Position numbers and translations under genes: made by a program. From a virus (lineage: Duplodnaviria > Caudoviricetes): a stretch of DNA of 35,183 bases. This document shows, in pieces, positions 5,948 through 34,812 of this stretch. The notes beneath the pieces were generated by a model, which saw only the letters and a program-made list of their open reading frames with translations, was not told the origin of the DNA and did not search any database. The stretch spans positions 1 to 35,183 of the IMG/VR virus record IMGVR_UViG_3300017785_006519. The stretch is one strand, 5' to 3'. How positions within the stretch are numbered: the stretch's first letter is position 1; every line of letters starts with the position of its first letter.

Positions 5948-6453
5948 GTGACGAGCTGATTACGATCAGCGCGATTGACCCGTCCGACCTCGTTACGGTT
6001 TCGATCACCGAGACGACCGACGCGGTGACGGTCACTGCCGTTGACGCCTCCGACCAGGTGACGGTGAGCGTGGCCGGTGACACCACCACCGTCGAAGTCA
6101 CCGCCGACAGCAGCTCGGACGCGGTGACGGTGACGAGCGTTGACCCCTCCGACGCCGTGACGGTGAGCGTCACCACCGCCGACGACGCGGTTACGGTGAG
6201 CGTATCGAATGACACCGGCCCAGCGGGCGCGGACTACGACCAGCGCACCGATTGGCTCGGGCTTGTCGTCGGCTTTAACGCCATCCCCACCGCCCCCACG
6301 GCAATCACGGGCGGCAGCGTTTACACCTACACCTACGCGGGCGGCACCCGCTACCGCTTCGTTTCAACGAGCGGGCTTACAGATTCCTTTTACACCACTT
6401 TCGACGGATCAAATTTAACCGGCCTCGTGGCAAGCAAGGGTTTGACCTTGTAA
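5944..6453 (+). CDS. Virion protein with 11-aa D-x-V-T-V repeats
   Basis: About 7 tandem repeats such as DPSDAVTVSVT; ATGA overlap with the upstream gene. Confidence 0.7.
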   Translation: MSDELITISAIDPSDLVTVSITETTDAVTVTAVDASDQVTVSVAGDTTTVEVTADSSSDAVTVTSVDPSDAVTVSVTTADDAVTVSVSNDTGPAGADYDQRTDWLGLVVGFNAIPTAPTAITGGSVYTYTYAGGTRYRFVSTSGLTDSFYTTFDGSNLTGLVASKGLTL

Positions 6454-21189: not shown

Positions 21190-21227
21190 AAAAAGCCCCG
21201 CTTTTTACGGTGGGGCTTCTGGTTTTT
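21190..21227. terminator. Probable bidirectional intrinsic terminator
   Basis: AAGCCCCGC / GTGGGGCTT stem with A-run and T-rich flanks, between convergent operons. Confidence 0.75.
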
Positions 21228-21362
21228 ACAAGGCTTATGGGGTCTTGTGCTGATGGAAAGCTTTCCAGTTTAGCAGGCGTTAAGCGCGCCTAACTAGATC
21301 CGCGCAAAACCTACTTTTTTACGGTTTCCAAGTGGTGTGGCCCGCCTACATGGAAAATCTTC

Positions 21363-21381
21363 CGACTACACAACGTTCGGC
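21363..21381 (+). promoter_or_regulatory. attI-like entry site (core G|TTCGGC)
   Basis: GTTCGGC 21375-21381 complements R'' GCCGAAC of attC1; no attC hairpin upstream. Confidence 0.55.
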
Positions 21382-21635
21382 AGAAGCTGGCAGCGGGCTT
21401 TCCCCTGCATCGTTGCTTCATCCCGCCATTCCGTGACTCGGTAGCCACAGCGGATCAAATCGGCACGGGCTTCCTTCCATTGCCGCTCAAACTCGCGAGG
21501 CGACACGCCAGAGCGCATCACAGCGTAGTCCGAGACCTCAATCGTAAAGTCGTCAGGCAACTGAGCCGAACCAAGCGCTGGACTCAATGACCACGATTGG
21601 CCCGCTAATTGTTTGCTATCAGGTAGAGTGGTCAT
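21366..21635 (-). CDS. Cassette 1 hypothetical protein
   Basis: Start inside attC1 (alternative ATG 21518); ends LPNVV beyond the core. Confidence 0.6.
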   Translation of the reverse strand: MTTLPDSKQLAGQSWSLSPALGSAQLPDDFTIEVSDYAVMRSGVSPREFERQWKEARADLIRCGYRVTEWRDEATMQGKARCQLLPNVV

Positions 21636-21655
21636 GAGTCAGCTTTACGTTAGGC
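21565..21655 (+). repeat. attC 1
   Basis: GCCGAAC-caagc-GCTGGACT...AGTCAGC-tttac-GTTAGGC. Confidence 0.9.
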
Positions 21656-21671
21656 AATGCGGACACCGGAA

Positions 21672-21935
21672 TTAGCGTGGCCCTTCGAAAAGGTATTCTT
21701 CGGTTTCAAGTGTTTCTTTATGCTCGGCTTGGTTGCTCGCTAATAGATCGTCGTGGAGATTAGCCCATCCAAGTACCCAAAAAGGGACGTGCTCGCTCAT
21801 GTGGTTTGGGCACTTATTTGCGAACTGGAGTTGATTAGCAGTAAGCTCTAGTATTAGGCCCCACTTTGATTTAATCCTAGTGCCAATCGGTAGCGGTTTA
21901 TTATCCGCATACAGTTTATAGATTTCGGGTGTCAT
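21672..21935 (-). CDS. Cassette 2 hypothetical protein (87 aa)
   Basis: MTPEIYK start after the AT-rich leader. Confidence 0.75.
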   Translation of the reverse strand: MTPEIYKLYADNKPLPIGTRIKSKWGLILELTANQLQFANKCPNHMSEHVPFWVLGWANLHDDLLASNQAEHKETLETEEYLFEGPR

Positions 21936-21973
21936 GCTATTTATGGTTATATCGGAATTACGGAAGTTACAGA

Positions 21974-22063
21974 GCCTAACCACGCGCTACAGCGAATAGC
22001 CCGCAGACGTCGCAAATTGTTCGTGTAGGTGCAGTGGGCTATCGCTGAGCTTAAACGTTGGGC
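21974..22063 (+). repeat. attC 2
   Basis: GCCTAAC-cacgc-GCTACAGC...GCTGAGC-ttaaac-GTTGGGC. Confidence 0.95.
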
Positions 22064-22233
22064 AATGAAGCATCCCGAACCAGCCGCTCAAATGCGCGGG
22101 CTTGGCTGAGCTTCGTGATGTGGCAGTAAAGGCGGAATCGGGATGACGTATATTGATCCACCTTCACCGTCACCGCGACCCGAGCGGGGCCAGCCTTACG
22201 GCCTGCTCCTTTGCGTTTGCCTCCGGCGCTCAT
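22051..22233 (-). CDS. Cassette 3 small DNA-binding protein (GGKRKGAGRK motif, RHH-like), copy 1
   Basis: Differs by one residue from 24882..25064. Confidence 0.8.
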   Translation of the reverse strand: MSAGGKRKGAGRKAGPARVAVTVKVDQYTSSRFRLYCHITKLSQARAFERLVRDASLPNV

Positions 22234-22406
22234 GCGCGGCGCACGCTGTTTTTCTTTACTTTGCCGGTTTTCGTGAGGCGGCAGTCATATTCCGTTCCAC
22301 CAACGAAAAACATAAGAACGTCCTCCACTTGGCGAATCTGACTGATGACTTCATTGGAGACGTTGAGGGCGGCGGCGATGTCGTAGCGGTGTTGGGTTAA
22401 GTTCAT
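22230..22406 (-). CDS. Cassette 3 first gene (58 aa)
   Basis: MNLTQHRYDIAAALNV...SVRRA; ATGA overlap with the next gene. Confidence 0.7.
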   Translation of the reverse strand: MNLTQHRYDIAAALNVSNEVISQIRQVEDVLMFFVGGTEYDCRLTKTGKVKKNSVRRA

Positions 22407-22413
22407 GAGTTAG

Positions 22414-22441
22414 ACCCTGATAGTATTTTTATTGTTTGCAA
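22414..22441 (-). promoter_or_regulatory. Putative cassette-internal promoter
   Basis: TTGCAA-16 bp-CAGGGT, 7 nt before the ATG; homologous to 25269-25296. Confidence 0.45.
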
Positions 22442-22496
22442 GCACTATTTCAAAATAAATCAAAAAAAGATTTCGGAGACGGAAACGGGCATCAGA

Positions 22497-22589
22497 GCCC
22501 ATCAAGGCGCTAGAGCCAAGATGCGCATTGGCCCGCTGATGGTTTAGCGTCAGGGGTGTTGCGCATCTGGCTCAGCTTTAACGTTGGGC
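22497..22589 (+). repeat. attC 3 (R'' AAC changed to ATC)
   Basis: GCCCATC-aaggc-GCTAGAGC...GCTCAGC-tttaac-GTTGGGC. Confidence 0.9.
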
Positions 22590-22798
22590 AGAGGCGGAAC
22601 CAATCGTAGCCAATGCGTAGGAATCTCGTAAGATTCTAGTCGGCACCAATCCATCCGGCCGAAGCCATTTATGCTATACTCCTTCCAGCATCCGTTTACC
22701 CATCTACAGCCCATGAGCATTTGCTTGGATGTTTCACACCAAAGCACCAGATCGCTTCCGTCTTTGGGTGCTGTATCTATACTTTTCCAGTCATTCAT
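22550..22798 (-). CDS. Cassette 4 DUF551-like phage protein
   Basis: WKSIDTAPKDG...PTHW motifs. Confidence 0.8.
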   Translation of the reverse strand: MNDWKSIDTAPKDGSDLVLWCETSKQMLMGCRWVNGCWKEYSINGFGRMDWCRLESYEIPTHWLRLVPPLPNVKAEPDAQHP

Positions 22799-22843
22799 AG
22801 TTTATATTATTCAAGGGTTATTCGTAAATTAAAAGGCATCAGA

Positions 22844-22935
22844 GCCCAACCAGGCGCTAGAGCCAAGATGCGCATTGGGCCGCTGATTGTTTACTGTCAG
22901 GGGTGTTGCGCATCTGGCTCAGCTAGACGTTAGGC
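22844..22935 (+). repeat. attC 4
   Basis: GCCCAAC-caggc-GCTAGAGC...GCTCAGC-tagac-GTTAGGC. Confidence 0.95.
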
Positions 22936-23106
22936 AGATTTTAAGACAAAGTATGCGTGCTCAATATTGCATTCGTCCCATTCGCCGTGAAAGCATTTAG
23001 CCAGTGGTGTATATGCCTCATGAATGATCTTACTTAGCCGTGCGTTCTCGGCTTTGAGTTCGTCGTTTTCAGAAAGGACGGCTTTAAGTTGTTCGGTGGT
23101 TGTCAT
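22930..23106 (-). CDS. Cassette 5 hypothetical protein (58 aa)
   Basis: MTTTEQLKAV...FVLKSA; stop codon inside the core site. Confidence 0.75.
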   Translation of the reverse strand: MTTTEQLKAVLSENDELKAENARLSKIIHEAYTPLAKCFHGEWDECNIEHAYFVLKSA

Positions 23107-23140
23107 GTTATCTATTAGTTATCAGAATTAAAGACGCAGA

Positions 23141-23234
23141 GCCTAACCAAGCGCTACAGAGAACGACCACGCTATTGACTCAAATGGTTCGAGTGTCGGG
23201 TAGATGTGGTCGTCTCTGAGCTTAAACGTTGGGC
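23141..23234 (+). repeat. attC 5
   Basis: GCCTAAC-caagc-GCTACAGA...TCTGAGC-ttaaac-GTTGGGC. Confidence 0.95.
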
Positions 23235-23539
23235 AACTCGGAATTAAGGCCGAGCGCTTCAGCTGCGTTCCTAAATGCAGACACGTTTATCGCTTGGTTC
23301 CCGACTACCCTAACCTTTTTCATTGGGTCAAGCCCGTCCAGCGCGGAGGCAAATAACCCAAACGGAGCGAGTGCGTCTTGCAGCTTTTCGAGCTCATTGA
23401 TTAGTTTCCTGTATTCGGCCCGATTTACGCGAGCGTCATGAACTTCTAAAAGCGATGCCAGCTCAGGAATCGCATCGTGATTCCACTCCATGCGTTCGCA
23501 GTATTTTCCAGCAAGTGTGATATATTCGTCGGGTGTCAT
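23222..23539 (-). CDS. Cassette 6 hypothetical protein (105 aa)
   Basis: MTPDEYITL start after the conserved leader; ends LPNV. Confidence 0.75.
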   Translation of the reverse strand: MTPDEYITLAGKYCERMEWNHDAIPELASLLEVHDARVNRAEYRKLINELEKLQDALAPFGLFASALDGLDPMKKVRVVGNQAINVSAFRNAAEALGLNSELPNV

Positions 23540-23570
23540 TTGATTAGTTATTTCGGAAGCGGGCATTCGA

Positions 23571-23660
23571 GCCCAACCACGCGCTACAGCGAATAGCCCA
23601 ATAACGCCGCTGATGGTTCGTGTATTTGTTTGTGGGCTATCGCTGAGCTTTACGTTAGGC
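23571..23660 (+). repeat. attC 6
   Basis: GCCCAAC-cacgc-GCTACAGC...GCTGAGC-tttac-GTTAGGC. Confidence 0.95.
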
Positions 23661-23837
23661 AGAGTTGACCTTACGGACAAGTTCGCGGGCTGCTTTGAGC
23701 ACCCTATCGTGGTCAACGTCGTCGTAATCCACAAACATCCTTAGTGCCTGTTCAACCTGTAGGCTTTCGGATTCTTCAGTTATCAAGAGGCGTTTATCAC
23801 CGGGCTGCGGGTCGTGGAGTTTAAGTTTCATATTCAT
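23655..23837 (-). CDS. Cassette 7 hypothetical protein
   Basis: 60 aa; stop codon inside the core site. Confidence 0.75.
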   Translation of the reverse strand: MNMKLKLHDPQPGDKRLLITEESESLQVEQALRMFVDYDDVDHDRVLKAARELVRKVNSA

Positions 23838-23870
23838 TGTTGTTTAGTTATTCGGAATTAAAGACACGGA

Positions 23871-23959
23871 GCCTAACCAGGCGCTACAGCGAATAGCCCG
23901 CAACGCCGCTGATGGTTCGGCTAGTTTCAGTGGGCTATCGCTGAGCTTGAACGTTAGGC
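23871..23959 (+). repeat. attC 7
   Basis: GCCTAAC-caggc-GCTACAGC...GCTGAGC-ttgaac-GTTAGGC. Confidence 0.95.
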
Positions 23960-24265
23960 AGAGAATGAATCCAATTCAGCCTGATACTTCGCAATCTTAC
24001 CCTTTAGCCACTTAATCCGTTTTCCGTTAATCACAGTTTTTTCTGCGGATGTTTTTCGACGCCCATCGGTATGAATCATATCCTCCGTAAGAATAGCACC
24101 GCACTCATATGCCTTCATTACTAGTTTTTTGGTGAGCGTTCGGCGGGATGGTATTATTAGTGCACCAGTCACAGGATGGACTGCATCGACCTTTAGTTTT
24201 CTTCCTGCATATGCCGTGTCGCAGAATTTCATTTTTTCGCTAAGCTCTGTTTTCTTATTAGTCAT
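23954..24265 (-). CDS. Cassette 8 basic hypothetical protein
   Basis: 103 aa; stop codon inside the core site. Confidence 0.75.
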   Translation of the reverse strand: MTNKKTELSEKMKFCDTAYAGRKLKVDAVHPVTGALIIPSRRTLTKKLVMKAYECGAILTEDMIHTDGRRKTSAEKTVINGKRIKWLKGKIAKYQAELDSFSA

Positions 24266-24324
24266 AGTCTTTCGTTTAGTTTCAGTGTTCGTTTACATTA
24301 CCCAATCATCGGAAAAACCATACA

Positions 24325-24418
24325 GCCTAACCAGTCGCTACAGCGAATGAGCACACTAGGCACGCTAATGGATCGTGTATCGAGTAGAAGTGCTCATCGC
24401 TGAGCTTGAACGTTGGGC
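24325..24418 (+). repeat. attC 8
   Basis: GCCTAAC-cagtc-GCTACAGC...GCTGAGC-ttgaac-GTTGGGC. Confidence 0.95.
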
Positions 24419-24765
24419 AATGCAGAAAGTTCGGACTCTGCTTTTTTAATGGCGACATGTGATCTTTCAATTACCCGCCTAAGTTGGTTTATCTTTTTCT
24501 CTCGCTTCTCCGCGTCCTTCTGCGCCTGCGTAAGTTTTCTGTGAATTTCCTTTTTTCTCATGTTGGGCTTCATCCACCCAACCTCACGCATGCGATTAAC
24601 GAATCCATCCCCGCACCCCTTAAAGGATCGCCAGTAGTTTTCCGTTTTTTCACTGAATAAGTGTTGCGGTATTTTATCGACATTTAAGGCGTGTCTTATC
24701 GCGGCCTGTTCCAGCGGCCTAAATACTGACATACGCACCTCGTTCTTTATTTTTTCGGTTATCAT
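24394..24765 (-). CDS. Cassette 9 hypothetical protein (123 aa, C-terminal coiled coil)
   Basis: MITEKIKNE start after the conserved leader; ends LPNVQAQR. Confidence 0.75.
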   Translation of the reverse strand: MITEKIKNEVRMSVFRPLEQAAIRHALNVDKIPQHLFSEKTENYWRSFKGCGDGFVNRMREVGWMKPNMRKKEIHRKLTQAQKDAEKREKKINQLRRVIERSHVAIKKAESELSALPNVQAQR

Positions 24766-24802
24766 AAATTCGTTTAGTTTTATTCGGAAGGGATACAAAG
24801 AC

Positions 24803-24894
24803 GCCCAACCAAGCGCTACAGAGAACGACCACGCTTGGCACTCTAATGGTTCGGGAGTCAGGGAGAGTGGTCGTCTCTGAGCTAGACGTTGGGC
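24803..24894 (+). repeat. attC 9
   Basis: GCCCAAC-caagc-GCTACAGA...TCTGAGC-tagac-GTTGGGC. Confidence 0.95.
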
Positions 24895-25064
24895 AATGAA
24901 GCATCCCGAACCAGTCGCTCGAATGCGCGGGCTTGGCTGAGCTTCGTGATGTGGCAGTAAAGGCGGAAGCGGGATGACGTGTATTCGTCCACCTTCACCG
25001 TCACAGCGACCCGAGCGGGGCCAGCCTTGCGGCCTGCACCTTTGCGTTTTCCTCCTGCGCTCAT
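24882..25064 (-). CDS. Cassette 10 small DNA-binding protein, copy 2
   Basis: Near-identical to 22051..22233. Confidence 0.8.
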   Translation of the reverse strand: MSAGGKRKGAGRKAGPARVAVTVKVDEYTSSRFRLYCHITKLSQARAFERLVRDASLPNV

Positions 25065-25261
25065 GCGGCCATTGCTGCGTTGATGGATGGAGCAGCAACC
25101 CGAGCGATCTGCGTGAATTTATCGCCCATGTAGTTATATGCAATCTGCGCATCAGCATATCCTAAGCTCTGCGCGACCTTGAAGAAATGGTCGGCGCGCT
25201 TCTGCGCGGCGCTAGCAATGCGGGCGTTTTTAATGCGGTCGGATGTGTTAAGTAGGTTCAT
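25061..25261 (-). CDS. Cassette 10 first gene (66 aa)
   Basis: ATGA overlap; unrelated to the cassette 3 first gene beyond MNL. Confidence 0.7.
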   Translation of the reverse strand: MNLLNTSDRIKNARIASAAQKRADHFFKVAQSLGYADAQIAYNYMGDKFTQIARVAAPSINAAMAA

Positions 25262-25268
25262 GAGTTAG

Positions 25269-25296
25269 ACCGTAAGAGCGTTTTGATTGATTGCAA
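25269..25296 (-). promoter_or_regulatory. Putative cassette-internal promoter
   Basis: TTGCAA-16 bp-TACGGT, 7 nt before the ATG; flanked by ATCAAAA repeats. Confidence 0.55.
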
Positions 25297-25350
25297 GCAC
25301 TAAATCAAAATAAATCAAAATAGATTTAGGAGACGGAAACGAGCATCCGA

Positions 25351-25445
25351 GCCCAACCAAGCGCTGGAGCCAACGACCCTGCTTGTCACTCTAATGGTTC
25401 GATTATCGCAGGTGTTAGGGTCGCGGCTCAGCTTTAACGTTGGGC
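25351..25445 (+). repeat. attC 10
   Basis: GCCCAAC-caagc-GCTGGAGC...GCTCAGC-tttaac-GTTGGGC. Confidence 0.95.
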
Positions 25446-25447
25446 AA

Positions 25448-25657
25448 TCAATGACCGGATTCATCGGTCTGCCAGTAATAGCAGGCTACGCGAAAAGCGT
25501 ATGTGGCGTCCACCCATCGCTTTTCTTTTATATACCGCTCGCCGATTTCTTCGCATTTTCCGGCAATTATTGCGGGCCGTAAATTACGCGACGGCATCGG
25601 CTGGCGTTCGGTGCAAGCCTCGTATGCAATGTTTTTAGCTTCTTGGTCTTCGTTCAT
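25448..25657 (-). CDS. Cassette 11 hypothetical protein
   Basis: 69 aa after the conserved leader. Confidence 0.7.
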   Translation of the reverse strand: MNEDQEAKNIAYEACTERQPMPSRNLRPAIIAGKCEEIGERYIKEKRWVDATYAFRVACYYWQTDESGH

Positions 25658-25698
25658 TTCAGTAATTTATTTAGTTATTCGGAAGGGATACAACGACC

Positions 25699-25745
25699 GC
25701 CCAACTATCAGGTAGAGTGGTCATGAGTCAGCTTGAGCGTTGGGC
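25699..25745 (+). repeat. attC 11, internally deleted (left arm lost)
   Basis: GCCCAAC joined directly to TATCAGGTAGAGTGGTCATGAGTCAGCTT, which is identical to the right arm of attC1, then GTTGGGC. Confidence 0.85.
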
Positions 25746-25747
25746 AA

Positions 25748-26335
25748 TCAGGAATCGGAAAGAGGCAGCTTGATCTCGGTGTAAATGCTAAGCGGTCCCG
25801 CCTTATCCAGCCAGTCACTCTGCCCTTGGCTCTCGGTTGACCGCTTATCGACCCCGTCTAGCACAGCCAAAGCGGCCGCATGGTCTCGATTGTATTCATC
25901 CACTTGTTCTTTCGAGCACACGTCCGGCAAGCAGTCCGGCCCCCACGATGCTAGTTTGGTTAAAGCTTTCCTGATCCGTCCGTTTTCCGCCTCAATCTCA
26001 GCGTATAATTTATATCGCATGCAATTGGTGGTCCACTCATCAGGACGACTTTCATTGGGCAATGGAGACACCAAGGCATCCCATGCGTCTATCTCTCGCG
26101 GCGCGTCGCCGATTTTGTGGCACTCAAAAGCGAGCGCGTCACGCAGAGCTTTTCCGCACTCCCGCAGCTTGGTGTTCTCGGCCCGCACTTGACGCAGCTC
26201 CTCGGCGTTGCAGCTCGCATCTAGCTCCATTTGTAGCCGTGCGTTCTCCCGCTCTAGGTTTTCGATTCGTTTACGCGCTGGAGAGCATTGCGCCTCCACC
26301 ATTTCCGCGAATTGTTCGTCAGTTAAATTGTCCAT
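25748..26335 (-). CDS. Coiled-coil hypothetical protein, probable fusion of two former cassette ORFs
   Basis: MDNLTD start; internal LPN encoded by a relic core ATTGGGC at 26054-26060. Confidence 0.65.
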   Translation of the reverse strand: MDNLTDEQFAEMVEAQCSPARKRIENLERENARLQMELDASCNAEELRQVRAENTKLRECGKALRDALAFECHKIGDAPREIDAWDALVSPLPNESRPDEWTTNCMRYKLYAEIEAENGRIRKALTKLASWGPDCLPDVCSKEQVDEYNRDHAAALAVLDGVDKRSTESQGQSDWLDKAGPLSIYTEIKLPLSDS

Positions 26336-26348
26336 ATTGTTTTTCGTT

Positions 26349-32989: not shown

Positions 32990-33198
32990 GACTTCAATTC
33001 ATTGGCACATTTAGGCTTAAACTTGAATTCATTATGTAAGTGCCTGCAAAAGTCATTGCGTATGTAATTTATTACGCGGTTTTGGCGGTTTTCGGCTGTG
33101 AATTGGCGGATTCGTGCGTTCTGGAATTACGTAAACCATTGCAAAGATGATTACTCTACGTAATTTAATCGCGGGCTTTTGCCGTTTTTGGGCGTTTT

Positions 33199-33381
33199 CA
33201 CCCTAAAAAGACATATTTACCCTAAAATATGGCGATTTTAGGGGTGTTTACCCCTAAACATATTTTACCCTAAAAAATGCTCTTTATAGGGCTTACCCCT
33301 ATAAACATATTTTCCCCCCTATATACATAGGGGGTGGAATATGTTTGGGGAGTAGGGTTGGATTTACCCTAAACCCTAAAC
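33199..33381. repeat. Iteron-like CCCTAAA / ACATATTT repeat cluster
   Basis: Multiple direct and inverted copies in an AT-rich intergenic region. Confidence 0.75.
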
Positions 33382-34584
33382 CGGATTCGGCGGCATGACC
33401 TCAAAGAACTCATCGGCCGCCCCTTCTTCGGGCAGGACCAGGTAATGCCCAAACGCCGTGGCCGATGAGTTGCCCGCCTGCCGCGTCGTGTCGGCAATAT
33501 CCTGCCCGCGCTGAAAATGGTACGACAGCCCCGTGTGCCGCAAAATATTTTCCTGCCAAACATCCGACACGATCCCGCGCTTCTTGTTTTTGACCGGCCC
33601 GCGCTTGGCGAGCCCCGCCGCCTCCCTCACCCCATCCCAACTCACACGCTTGCAGCTCGCCACCGGCTCACCCGTCGCCAGCGCCCTAGCCTTGGCTGCG
33701 ATGAGCACCGGCAACACGCAGGCCGGTACGGTCACGGTGCGATAACTCACCGTGCCACGTTTTCGCGGTCTGACCTCGATTGTCGGGGTTTTTGCGTCAA
33801 GGCGCATGTCGGCAGGCAAAACCCGCAGCGCTTCGGCGTGGCGCATGAAACACCAGCACGCGAGGGCCACATAAGCAGCCATTCCTTGCGATTTGGCGCG
33901 CTTTGCGGCACCCATTAGGGCGTGGGTATGGGCAGGGGTCAGAATGCGCGGCAAATCGACCGCGCGGGCACGTTCACTTAAATCCTTAAAATCGACCTCG
34001 AAAGGAATTTCCTTCACCCACCGCCGCTTCTTCCAGTGATTCGCCCACGCTTGCAGCACAGCGGCGTCGTTTTTCCGCGTGAAATCCGCCCGCTTCCCAC
34101 GATAAACGAACTCCTCGTAATGCTCCGGCGTCACCTCGCCCACGTTCGACACCCCAATCTCAGCCAGCCAAACCGTAAACGCCCGACACCGGCTAAGGTT
34201 ATTCGACCTCGTTGCATCCTGCCGCCCACGCTCAGCCTGATGCGCGAGCCAATCGGCCAGCGCTTGGGTGAGCGGCACGGGGTCGCCCTTGACCATGACG
34301 CGGTCGGAGGCGATCACGCAGGCCAGAAGCGAGCGCCCCCCTGCCCGCTCCACTGCGGCCTCGGCATCGCGGAGCTGGGCCTCGGTGAGCCTAGTCATGC
34401 GCGGAGCCATGATGTTCTCGGTCGCCTGCGTGAGCACGGCCTGCATTTCCTGCATCTTTGCACGCAGCGCGGCGACGTCGCGCCCCTGCTTGCGGATACG
34501 CTTGCCCAGATGGAATCCATCGAGGAGCCATGAACCGCCGGGAAGCGGAATGAGTCGGAGCAGATTCTCGCGGTGTCGGGCCAT
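33376..34584 (-). CDS. int: Phage tyrosine integrase
   Basis: MRHAEAL (R), NILRHT, AGNS...HY; adjacent to attP. Confidence 0.92.
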   Translation of the reverse strand: MARHRENLLRLIPLPGGSWLLDGFHLGKRIRKQGRDVAALRAKMQEMQAVLTQATENIMAPRMTRLTEAQLRDAEAAVERAGGRSLLACVIASDRVMVKGDPVPLTQALADWLAHQAERGRQDATRSNNLSRCRAFTVWLAEIGVSNVGEVTPEHYEEFVYRGKRADFTRKNDAAVLQAWANHWKKRRWVKEIPFEVDFKDLSERARAVDLPRILTPAHTHALMGAAKRAKSQGMAAYVALACWCFMRHAEALRVLPADMRLDAKTPTIEVRPRKRGTVSYRTVTVPACVLPVLIAAKARALATGEPVASCKRVSWDGVREAAGLAKRGPVKNKKRGIVSDVWQENILRHTGLSYHFQRGQDIADTTRQAGNSSATAFGHYLVLPEEGAADEFFEVMPPNPV

Positions 34585-34592
34585 GCCGTACA

Positions 34593-34812
34593 GTTGGCGT
34601 TAATCTTGGCGAGAATCAAGAAAAGCGGCGAAAATCAGCGAATTATCGCCAACTCTGCCAGAATTAAGGAGGGGCCCAAAACCCCACTTTCTCCTCTGAG
34701 AGAGTGGAGCCGATGGTCGGGATTGAACCGACGACCTGCGGTTTACGATACCGAGGGCGCTACCTCTCAAGAGCTGGAATGTTGGCGTTAATTGTTGGCC
34801 ATTCTCGCCAAC
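34593..34812. repeat. Integrase arm-type sites TTGGCG(A/T)(G/T)AAT
   Basis: Copies at 34593, 34606 and 34781 (+) and at 34642 and 34801 (-), flanking the core. Confidence 0.7.
34705..34748 (-). other. attP core: 3' half of tRNA-Thr(CGT)
   Basis: TCGTAAACCGCAGGTCGTCGGTTCAATCCCGACCATCGGCTCCA contains the anticodon loop, T-arm, acceptor strand and CCA; no 5' half. Confidence 0.88.

Follow-up and report, generated by a model that had tools for sequence, protein, structure and literature searches.

Introduction

The cassettes of integrons usually carry their open reading frames (ORFs) on the top strand of the attC site, running away from the attI site and the cassette promoter (Pc). Integrons have been treated as bacterial devices and, lately, as anti-phage gene stores. 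Many cassettes of chromosomal integrons are reported to be anti-phage (bioRxiv 10.1101/2024.07.02.601686). Phages, in turn, can hold attC arrays without an integrase (clusters of attC sites lacking integron-integrases, CALINs), and phage attC sites were recombined with IntI1, the bottom strand being preferred (Qi et al. 2023, PMC9892861). Here we analyse the complete virus record IMGVR_UViG_3300017785_006519, a freshwater temperate phage of 35,183 nt, whose full length we call the window. Like the phages of Qi et al., it contains an integrase-less attC array. We consider it probable that this array is a phage integron made of a host-type attI site and eleven flipped attC cassettes, shuffled by the IntI of an Opitutaceae host acting in trans. 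The argument is built on the anatomy and polarity of the sites, the homology of the attI module, the lack of an IntI gene, the turnover at the attI core and the tie between a phage class of attC and flipped genes.

Results

The array lies where the late (plus-strand) and early (minus-strand) arms of the genome meet, left of the dUTPase gene, and ends at a terminator-like hairpin. It contains ten intact attC sites of 89-95 nt, all with the plus strand as top strand. On that strand they are laid out as R''-5 nt-L'' (8 nt)...L' (7 nt)-5/6 nt-R', and their L boxes pair 7/7 once one extra base is removed. The first extra base is T or C; in class 1 attC sites it is G. An eleventh site is truncated, its left arm gone, and the boxes are complete in 10/11 sites. 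Scanning both strands of the whole window returned the same ten sites on the plus strand and, on the minus strand, one weaker (6/7) reading of the site at 24803. With at least two attC sites and no nearby IntI, the array is a CALIN. DNA folding places both extrahelical bases on the 3' arm of the minus strand in 10/10 sites, and the minus strand is therefore the attC bottom strand.

All 14 listed ORFs lie on this bottom strand. The first-pass annotation had called all of them inverted cassette ORFs, which holds for their strand; only 13 are within the 11 cassettes, the 14th belonging to a terminal unit without attC. An amino-acid log-odds coding score trained on 15 core phage genes exceeded 0.2 per residue in 10/14 minus-strand ORFs, versus 0/13 plus-strand ORFs of at least 50 amino acids (aa; best 0.13). 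Real plus-strand genes, which that annotation had named, together with dominant plus-strand transcription, as the finding that would speak against inversion, are thus not supported by composition. ORF length is an insufficient guide for cassettes 3 and 11, because the longest ORF there lies on the top strand (85 vs 60 and 70 vs 69 codons). Polarity might still have been misread, either because the plus strand is the recombining one and the ORFs are canonical or because the real genes are on the plus strand: attC boxes are near-palindromic, and top and bottom strands fold as DNA with similar energies. We find this hardly credible, given that the extrahelical bases assign the top strand to the plus strand in 10/10 sites, that the attI core has the same facing, that the same attC family is canonical beside host IntI, and that the plus-strand ORFs score as non-coding.

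The cassettes follow one another on the plus strand and their ORFs all lie on the minus strand; the first coordinate given for each intact attC is the start of its R'' box. Cassette 1 (21376..21649, attC1 21565-21655) holds the least certain ORF of the array, an 89-aa frame (21366..21635) whose start lies within attC1 and which continues across the attI core; from an internal ATG it would be 50 aa long, and its Atlas matches comprise no named proteins and have low shared-feature counts. Cassette 2 (21650..22057, attC2 21974-22063) encodes 87 aa at 21672-21935. Cassette 3 (22058..22583, attC3 22497-22589) carries a minus-strand promoter-like element (22414-22466) and two ORFs, 22230-22406 (58 aa) and 22051-22233 (60 aa, a probable ribbon-helix-helix (RHH) protein). 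The DUF551-like ORF of cassette 4 (22584..22929, attC4 22844-22935) occupies 22550-22798, running into attC3. ORFs with their stop inside R' are found in cassette 5 (22930..23228, attC5 23141-23234; ORF 22930-23106), cassette 7 (23655..23953, attC7 23871-23959; ORF 23655-23837) and cassette 8 (23954..24412, attC8 24325-24418; ORF 23954-24265). Between them, cassette 6 (23229..23654, attC6 23571-23660) encodes 105 aa (23222-23539) and has a 92% identical counterpart at a different position in G010. Cassette 9 (24413..24888, attC9 24803-24894) encodes 123 aa (24394-24765). Cassette 10 (24889..25439, attC10 25351-25445), a paralog of cassette 3, has its own minus-strand promoter-like element (25269-25321) and ORFs at 25061-25261 (66 aa) and 24882-25064 (RHH-like). 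Cassette 11 (25440..25738) holds an ORF at 25448-25657 and the truncated attC11 (25699-25744). The terminal unit (25739..26348) opens with an R' core, has no attC, encodes 195 aa (25748-26335) and abuts the dUTPase stop; possibly it is an old cassette that lost its attC. An attC11 minus one arm and a last unit without attC would fit addition at attI and attC loss with age.

Genes and recombination sites are thus interlocked: three window ORFs stop inside R', five read into the adjoining attC and one starts inside attC1. Seven more ORFs that start inside an attC bottom strand were seen in other loci, and in six loci (L117, L119, L046, L048, L050 and L114) an attC-encoded N-terminus of 25 residues is fused to methylase-like, PAPS-reductase-like or unassigned proteins.

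The core base that opens each cassette is complementary to the cassette's own R'' in 11/11 cases (p about 4e-4, permutation count) and to linear neighbours in 4/11, which fits cassettes that were once circles; host-class cassettes, defined below, show the same complementarity in 58/59. Contigs from four runs, one of which may be the window's own source, bridge most junctions with 0-1 differences (for instance X3 22773-23941 and X4 23623-24843), and the array is no assembly artefact. Contigs joining the attI core to a cassette-3/10-type start (runs X2 and X4) are short and may come from other phages; they were not counted.

At the top-strand 5' end of the array lies an attI-like module of about 165 nt (21218..21381, plus strand), with the crossover between G21375 and T21376. 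Its assignment as attI, already proposed for this end of the array by the first-pass annotation, is now tied to host attI sites beside IntI, and is argued from homology and from turnover at the core. The module is conserved in five related phages, the sequences diverging immediately past the core at 21375, and an nhmmer profile picked it up in nine further phage-like contigs, every match ending at this core, with a contig in the Rariglobus metagenome-assembled genome (MAG) G001 in addition. Over its last 20-40 nt the module matches attI sites that neighbour IntI genes in Opitutaceae genomes, and its last 20 nt are 20/20 identical to a site upstream of IntI in G001. Among 301 Opitutaceae-family genomes 7 gave a match; 2/8 places directly adjoin IntI genes and the others resemble those two. 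Even an unrelated low-GC phage has the module: loci L004 and L006 share flanks that are 97-99.8% identical and carry different cassettes past the same core. Together with cassettes shared at different ranks in G008, G009 and G010, such as a canonical host-class cassette that takes first place in G008 and third place in G009, this pair points by comparison to mobility of whole cassette units. The best ORF just downstream of the module lies on the bottom strand in 8/11 module loci; the remaining three comprise two captured host cassettes and one ambiguous case. A promoter scan gave no top-strand match in the module, which thus shows no Pc. Within 21266-21381, a small palindromic unit recurs in similar form after about 55 nt; both copies are kept in relatives and might be accessory IntI binding sites. 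A CRISPR spacer in an Opitutaceae-family genome (L136:1501-1535, G308) matches the 5' part of the module at 30/35 nt, and two other module carriers equally at 30/35 nt.

No IntI gene was found in the window with the TIGR02249 profile or by alignment to an IntI, and the array lacks the adjacent intI of a complete integron. The only integrase (33376..34584, minus strand) is a phage tyrosine integrase (phrog_1), with no TIGR02249 match and no significant alignment to an IntI. IntI scored above cut-off in 3/5 MAGs with the same attC family, and the chromosomal enzyme is our preferred candidate. The enzyme could instead be a phage-borne IntI that other (pro)phages supply and that may have a site preference of its own: a prophage-like region of the Rariglobus MAG G002 encodes, among head genes, a 320-aa IntI (L044:4102-5409, G002:C128; 273 bits, cut-off 265), which adjoins and is co-oriented with a flipped mini-cassette with a decayed attC. 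We take this to be quite unlikely, since a search for viral relatives of that IntI gave a single distant one (31% identity), IntI is present in 0/6 tested module- or array-bearing phage records (the five related phages and the window record), and the core of the module hardly differs from chromosomal attI sites. The same G002 region has a reverse transcriptase gene (L115:14550-15539, RVT_1), possibly part of a diversity-generating retroelement.

A search with the attC pattern beyond the window yielded 6 viral loci, 14 genome stretches and 71 metagenome stretches; all counts exclude duplicate contigs and the window's own record, which had turned up four times. In alignment the sites form two classes: host-class attC of 97-103 nt with a terminal hairpin, and phage-class attC of 89-96 nt that have lost it. 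Mean length and folding energy are 93 nt and -16.5 kcal/mol for the phage class versus 102 nt and -36.9 kcal/mol for the host class (70 vs 103 sites). Polarity outside the window was called by the composition score; it replaced rules from AT skew and longest ORF, which were noisy (bottom called in 18/27 short and 11/57 long sites). Phage-class closed cassettes were bottom-strand in 32/39, with 3 top and 4 uncalled; host-class closed cassettes were top-strand in 46/60, with 4 bottom and 10 uncalled (Fisher p 1e-15; 104 closed cassettes, 5 of another type, the cassettes not being independent). In MAGs of Rariglobus, Opitutaceae and Chthoniobacteraceae, arrays built from the window's attC family have their ORFs on the top strand. 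A phage-specific cassette pool, suggested earlier, is thereby borne out in the form of a separate attC class, and in the comparison of phage with chromosomal arrays that the first-pass annotation had called for, phage-class cassettes are mostly flipped and host ones canonical. Flipping is not universal, as canonical host cassettes occur in related arrays; in a phage-like contig of G001, for example, a canonical Phd/ParE cassette sits amid flipped genes. A leader motif near R'', sought with a loose pattern, did not separate the classes (36/69 vs 38/100), and frames open for translation through the bottom strand are not clearly more common in phage-class attC (0.39 vs 0.23). In L023, L014 and L029, several cassettes of host type have, at their end and upstream of R'', a common 40-nt element with a second, partial R''-like box ahead of the real attC.

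It is possible to imagine that the attC repeats came from the host and are now shuffled mainly by the phage's own homologous recombination (RecE/RecT), in the manner of the T4-type PeSL elements discussed below, IntI playing a minor part. The phage encodes RecE- and RecT-like genes, attC3 and attC4 are 93% identical, chimeric leader/attC combinations and exceptions to the class rule exist, and the terminal structures of phage-class attC are degraded. We regard this explanation as unlikely: in 10/10 sites the L boxes and the two extrahelical bases persist although the loop drifts, complementarity to the own core is complete across the array, and the attI core, where exchange takes place, shares only some 8 nt of homology with incoming cassettes.

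The cassette proteins are unnamed by Pfam, NCBIfam, PHROGs and PADLOC, with weak unknown-function PHROGs for 3/14 only. The claim that the cargo is phage-type is upheld by the 82-aa DUF551-like protein, whose look-alike clusters are 67-93% viral among members with a record. The ORF itself has no Pfam match at E 0.05, tblastn against 50,697 records of cultured phages gave no match, and a protein search returned only itself. Homologs of 7/14 window ORFs occur in the compared loci, all in flipped cassettes or without a detected attC and none in a canonical cassette, as the annotation had anticipated; some of those without a detected attC represent missed or decayed sites.

Cassettes 3 and 10 share an A/T tract, a -35-like box and a weak -10-like box 7 nt before the ATG, with a 16-17 nt spacer, followed by a variable small ORF and then the 60-aa probable RHH protein; RHH-type Pfam matches below cut-off were obtained in 3/16 homologs of the latter. 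The early transcript, which the first-pass annotation took to replace Pc, therefore need not be the only source of cassette expression, given these putative left-facing promoters, and the newest cassette, said to be promoter-distal, lies about 1 kb from one of them. The unit of promoter-like element, small ORF and RHH-like gene also occurs without attC in L011, L012, L015 and L016. Among 17 RHH-like homologs, 6 have a tail of the type encoded by an R' box and 11 have none. Their tree requires at least four changes and rejects a single clade; DNA context was checked for 4/17. This pattern is compatible with repeated capture, with repeated loss and with gene swap through homologous recombination. 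In L012/L015 a gene end without attC resembles a core site but is one base out of register, and it is not proof of capture. For the origin of cassettes, on which inverted cargo had been expected to bear, these data are suggestive only.

The late arm of the phage has terminase, portal and capsid genes on the plus strand, and the early arm has integrase, RecT, RecE, RusA, replication initiator, DnaC and dUTPase genes on the minus strand (PHROGs). The hairpin at 21190..21227, with an A-tract before and a T-tract after it, is kept in 3/4 aligned relatives, matches a terminator scan on the plus strand at 21193-21218 and is likely a bidirectional terminator separating late from early genes. An attP core of 49 nt (34705..34753, plus strand) recurs without a mismatch in the 3' part of tRNA-Thr(CGT) in G001, one of 2/151 Opitutaceae-family genomes with the 49/49 match, which points to a likely Rariglobus-like Opitutaceae host. 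In the relative G009 (35,129 nt, with terminal repeats), homologs of the window's two ends are collinear and about 1.3 kb apart, and it is likely that little sequence is missing from the record. Directly downstream of the integrase gene, a 12-nt A/T-rich repeat occurs at least four times in 33196-33381 together with an inverted repeat of 20 nt, possibly marking an origin or operator region. Repeats with a 33-nt period (5953-6203) lie within a 169-aa late-arm ORF without a family match. An Rfam scan of the window gave 0 matches at E 1.

Discussion

We propose that IntI, supplied by the lysogen's host or by a co-resident IntI-bearing prophage, would bind the folded bottom strand, cut at G|TT and insert cassettes at attI. 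Loss of attC would turn old, attI-distal cassettes into ordinary early genes. Cassette ORFs would be read from the early operon and from the promoter-like elements of cassettes 3 and 10, transcription stopping at the terminator.

Two compatible hypotheses may explain why the cassettes are flipped. With attI opposing transcription, the recombining bottom strand would be the non-template strand and, if the replication fork runs with the early genes, also the lagging-strand template, favouring attC folding. Folding is reported to be favoured in that arrangement, which chromosomal arrays mostly avoid (PMC8946536). The second is that captured promoterless host cassettes, of a kind that is often anti-phage in other bacteria, would be antisense and silent, and flipped phage cassettes would be expressed.

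Several points weigh against our proposal. Shuffling by IntI in trans and leftward expression are both deduced from sequence, and the lagging-strand hypothesis hangs on an unmapped replication origin. The cultured phage TJE1 has a canonical array, and flipping is therefore not obligatory in phages. The class rule is broken by 7/85 called cassettes; one of these, a host-type gene with a phage-class attC, points to homologous recombination as a further route. Phage-class attC, which fold much more weakly, may be poor substrates. A sigma-70 scanner did not report the promoters of cassettes 3 and 10, for which conservation is the sole basis. CheckV estimates the record (G000) as 45% complete and linear, leaving room for an IntI gene outside it, and the host assignment comes from a search within one family.

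A wider reading, offered tentatively and with more doubt than belief, is that Opitutaceae phages run a mirror-image branch of the integron. It would combine an anti-transcription attI module, their own attC class, the host's integrase, mutual silence of phage and host cassettes, cassettes born from phage genes and one gene family that switched at least four times between free and cassette form. If true, a phage with a host attI and its own flipped pool turns the integron machinery into a phage gene-swapping system. The paired free and cassette forms of one gene make the question of cassette origin testable, and the window system supplies defined assay substrates: the attI module, phage-class and host-class attC, and the host IntI.

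The sedentary chromosomal integrons of Opitutaceae, with IntI, attI and 97-103-nt attC, have the same attI core, L boxes, extrahelical bases and crossover, and some of the same cassettes. The phage differs in lacking intI and an evident Pc and in having its ORFs on the bottom strand; its attC are about 10 nt shorter, without the terminal hairpin, and often hold start or stop codons.

T4-type promoter-early stem-loop (PeSL) cassettes (Arbiol et al. 2010, PMC2839356) are likewise repeats among small non-essential phage genes, with modular shuffling and circles. A PeSL is a unit of promoter and terminator, whereas the repeats in the window are built like attC sites, with an attI as entry site and relatives in host integrons. 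They lack a strong sigma-70 promoter with a terminator: the window scan gave no leftward promoter match inside the attC repeats and one terminator-like match, overlapping attC9. Insertion at attG (bioRxiv 10.1101/2022.09.11.507474) resembles our case as a route for attC or attI into phages and in domestication by attC loss; here, by contrast, cassettes enter at a homolog of attI that is conserved, and flipped phage genes form whole arrays.

The window differs from the arrays of Qi et al. (PMC9892861) in that its attI module is of host type, its attC form a phage class of their own, all its cargo is flipped and related arrays are mixed. In the text consulted, that paper does not discuss ORF polarity relative to attC, which its figures and Dryad annotation may show. 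Of three of its phages that we re-examined, TJE1 is the canonical one mentioned above, and in MW202573 and H101 the annotated ORFs occupy the bottom strand of attC, with additional unannotated plus-strand frames in H101. Flipped published CALINs are at KR534323.1:75900-78000 (L130) and MW202573.1:2000-4100 (L125). H101 is cultured and its attC sites have been assayed (PMC9892861), which makes it a ready test system. We found no description of flipped cassette cargo in a literature search from which subscription journals are largely missing. The window contributes an attI homologous to that of the likely host, a division of attC into two classes for which mixed arrays serve as an internal control, and genes that exist in both free and cassette form.

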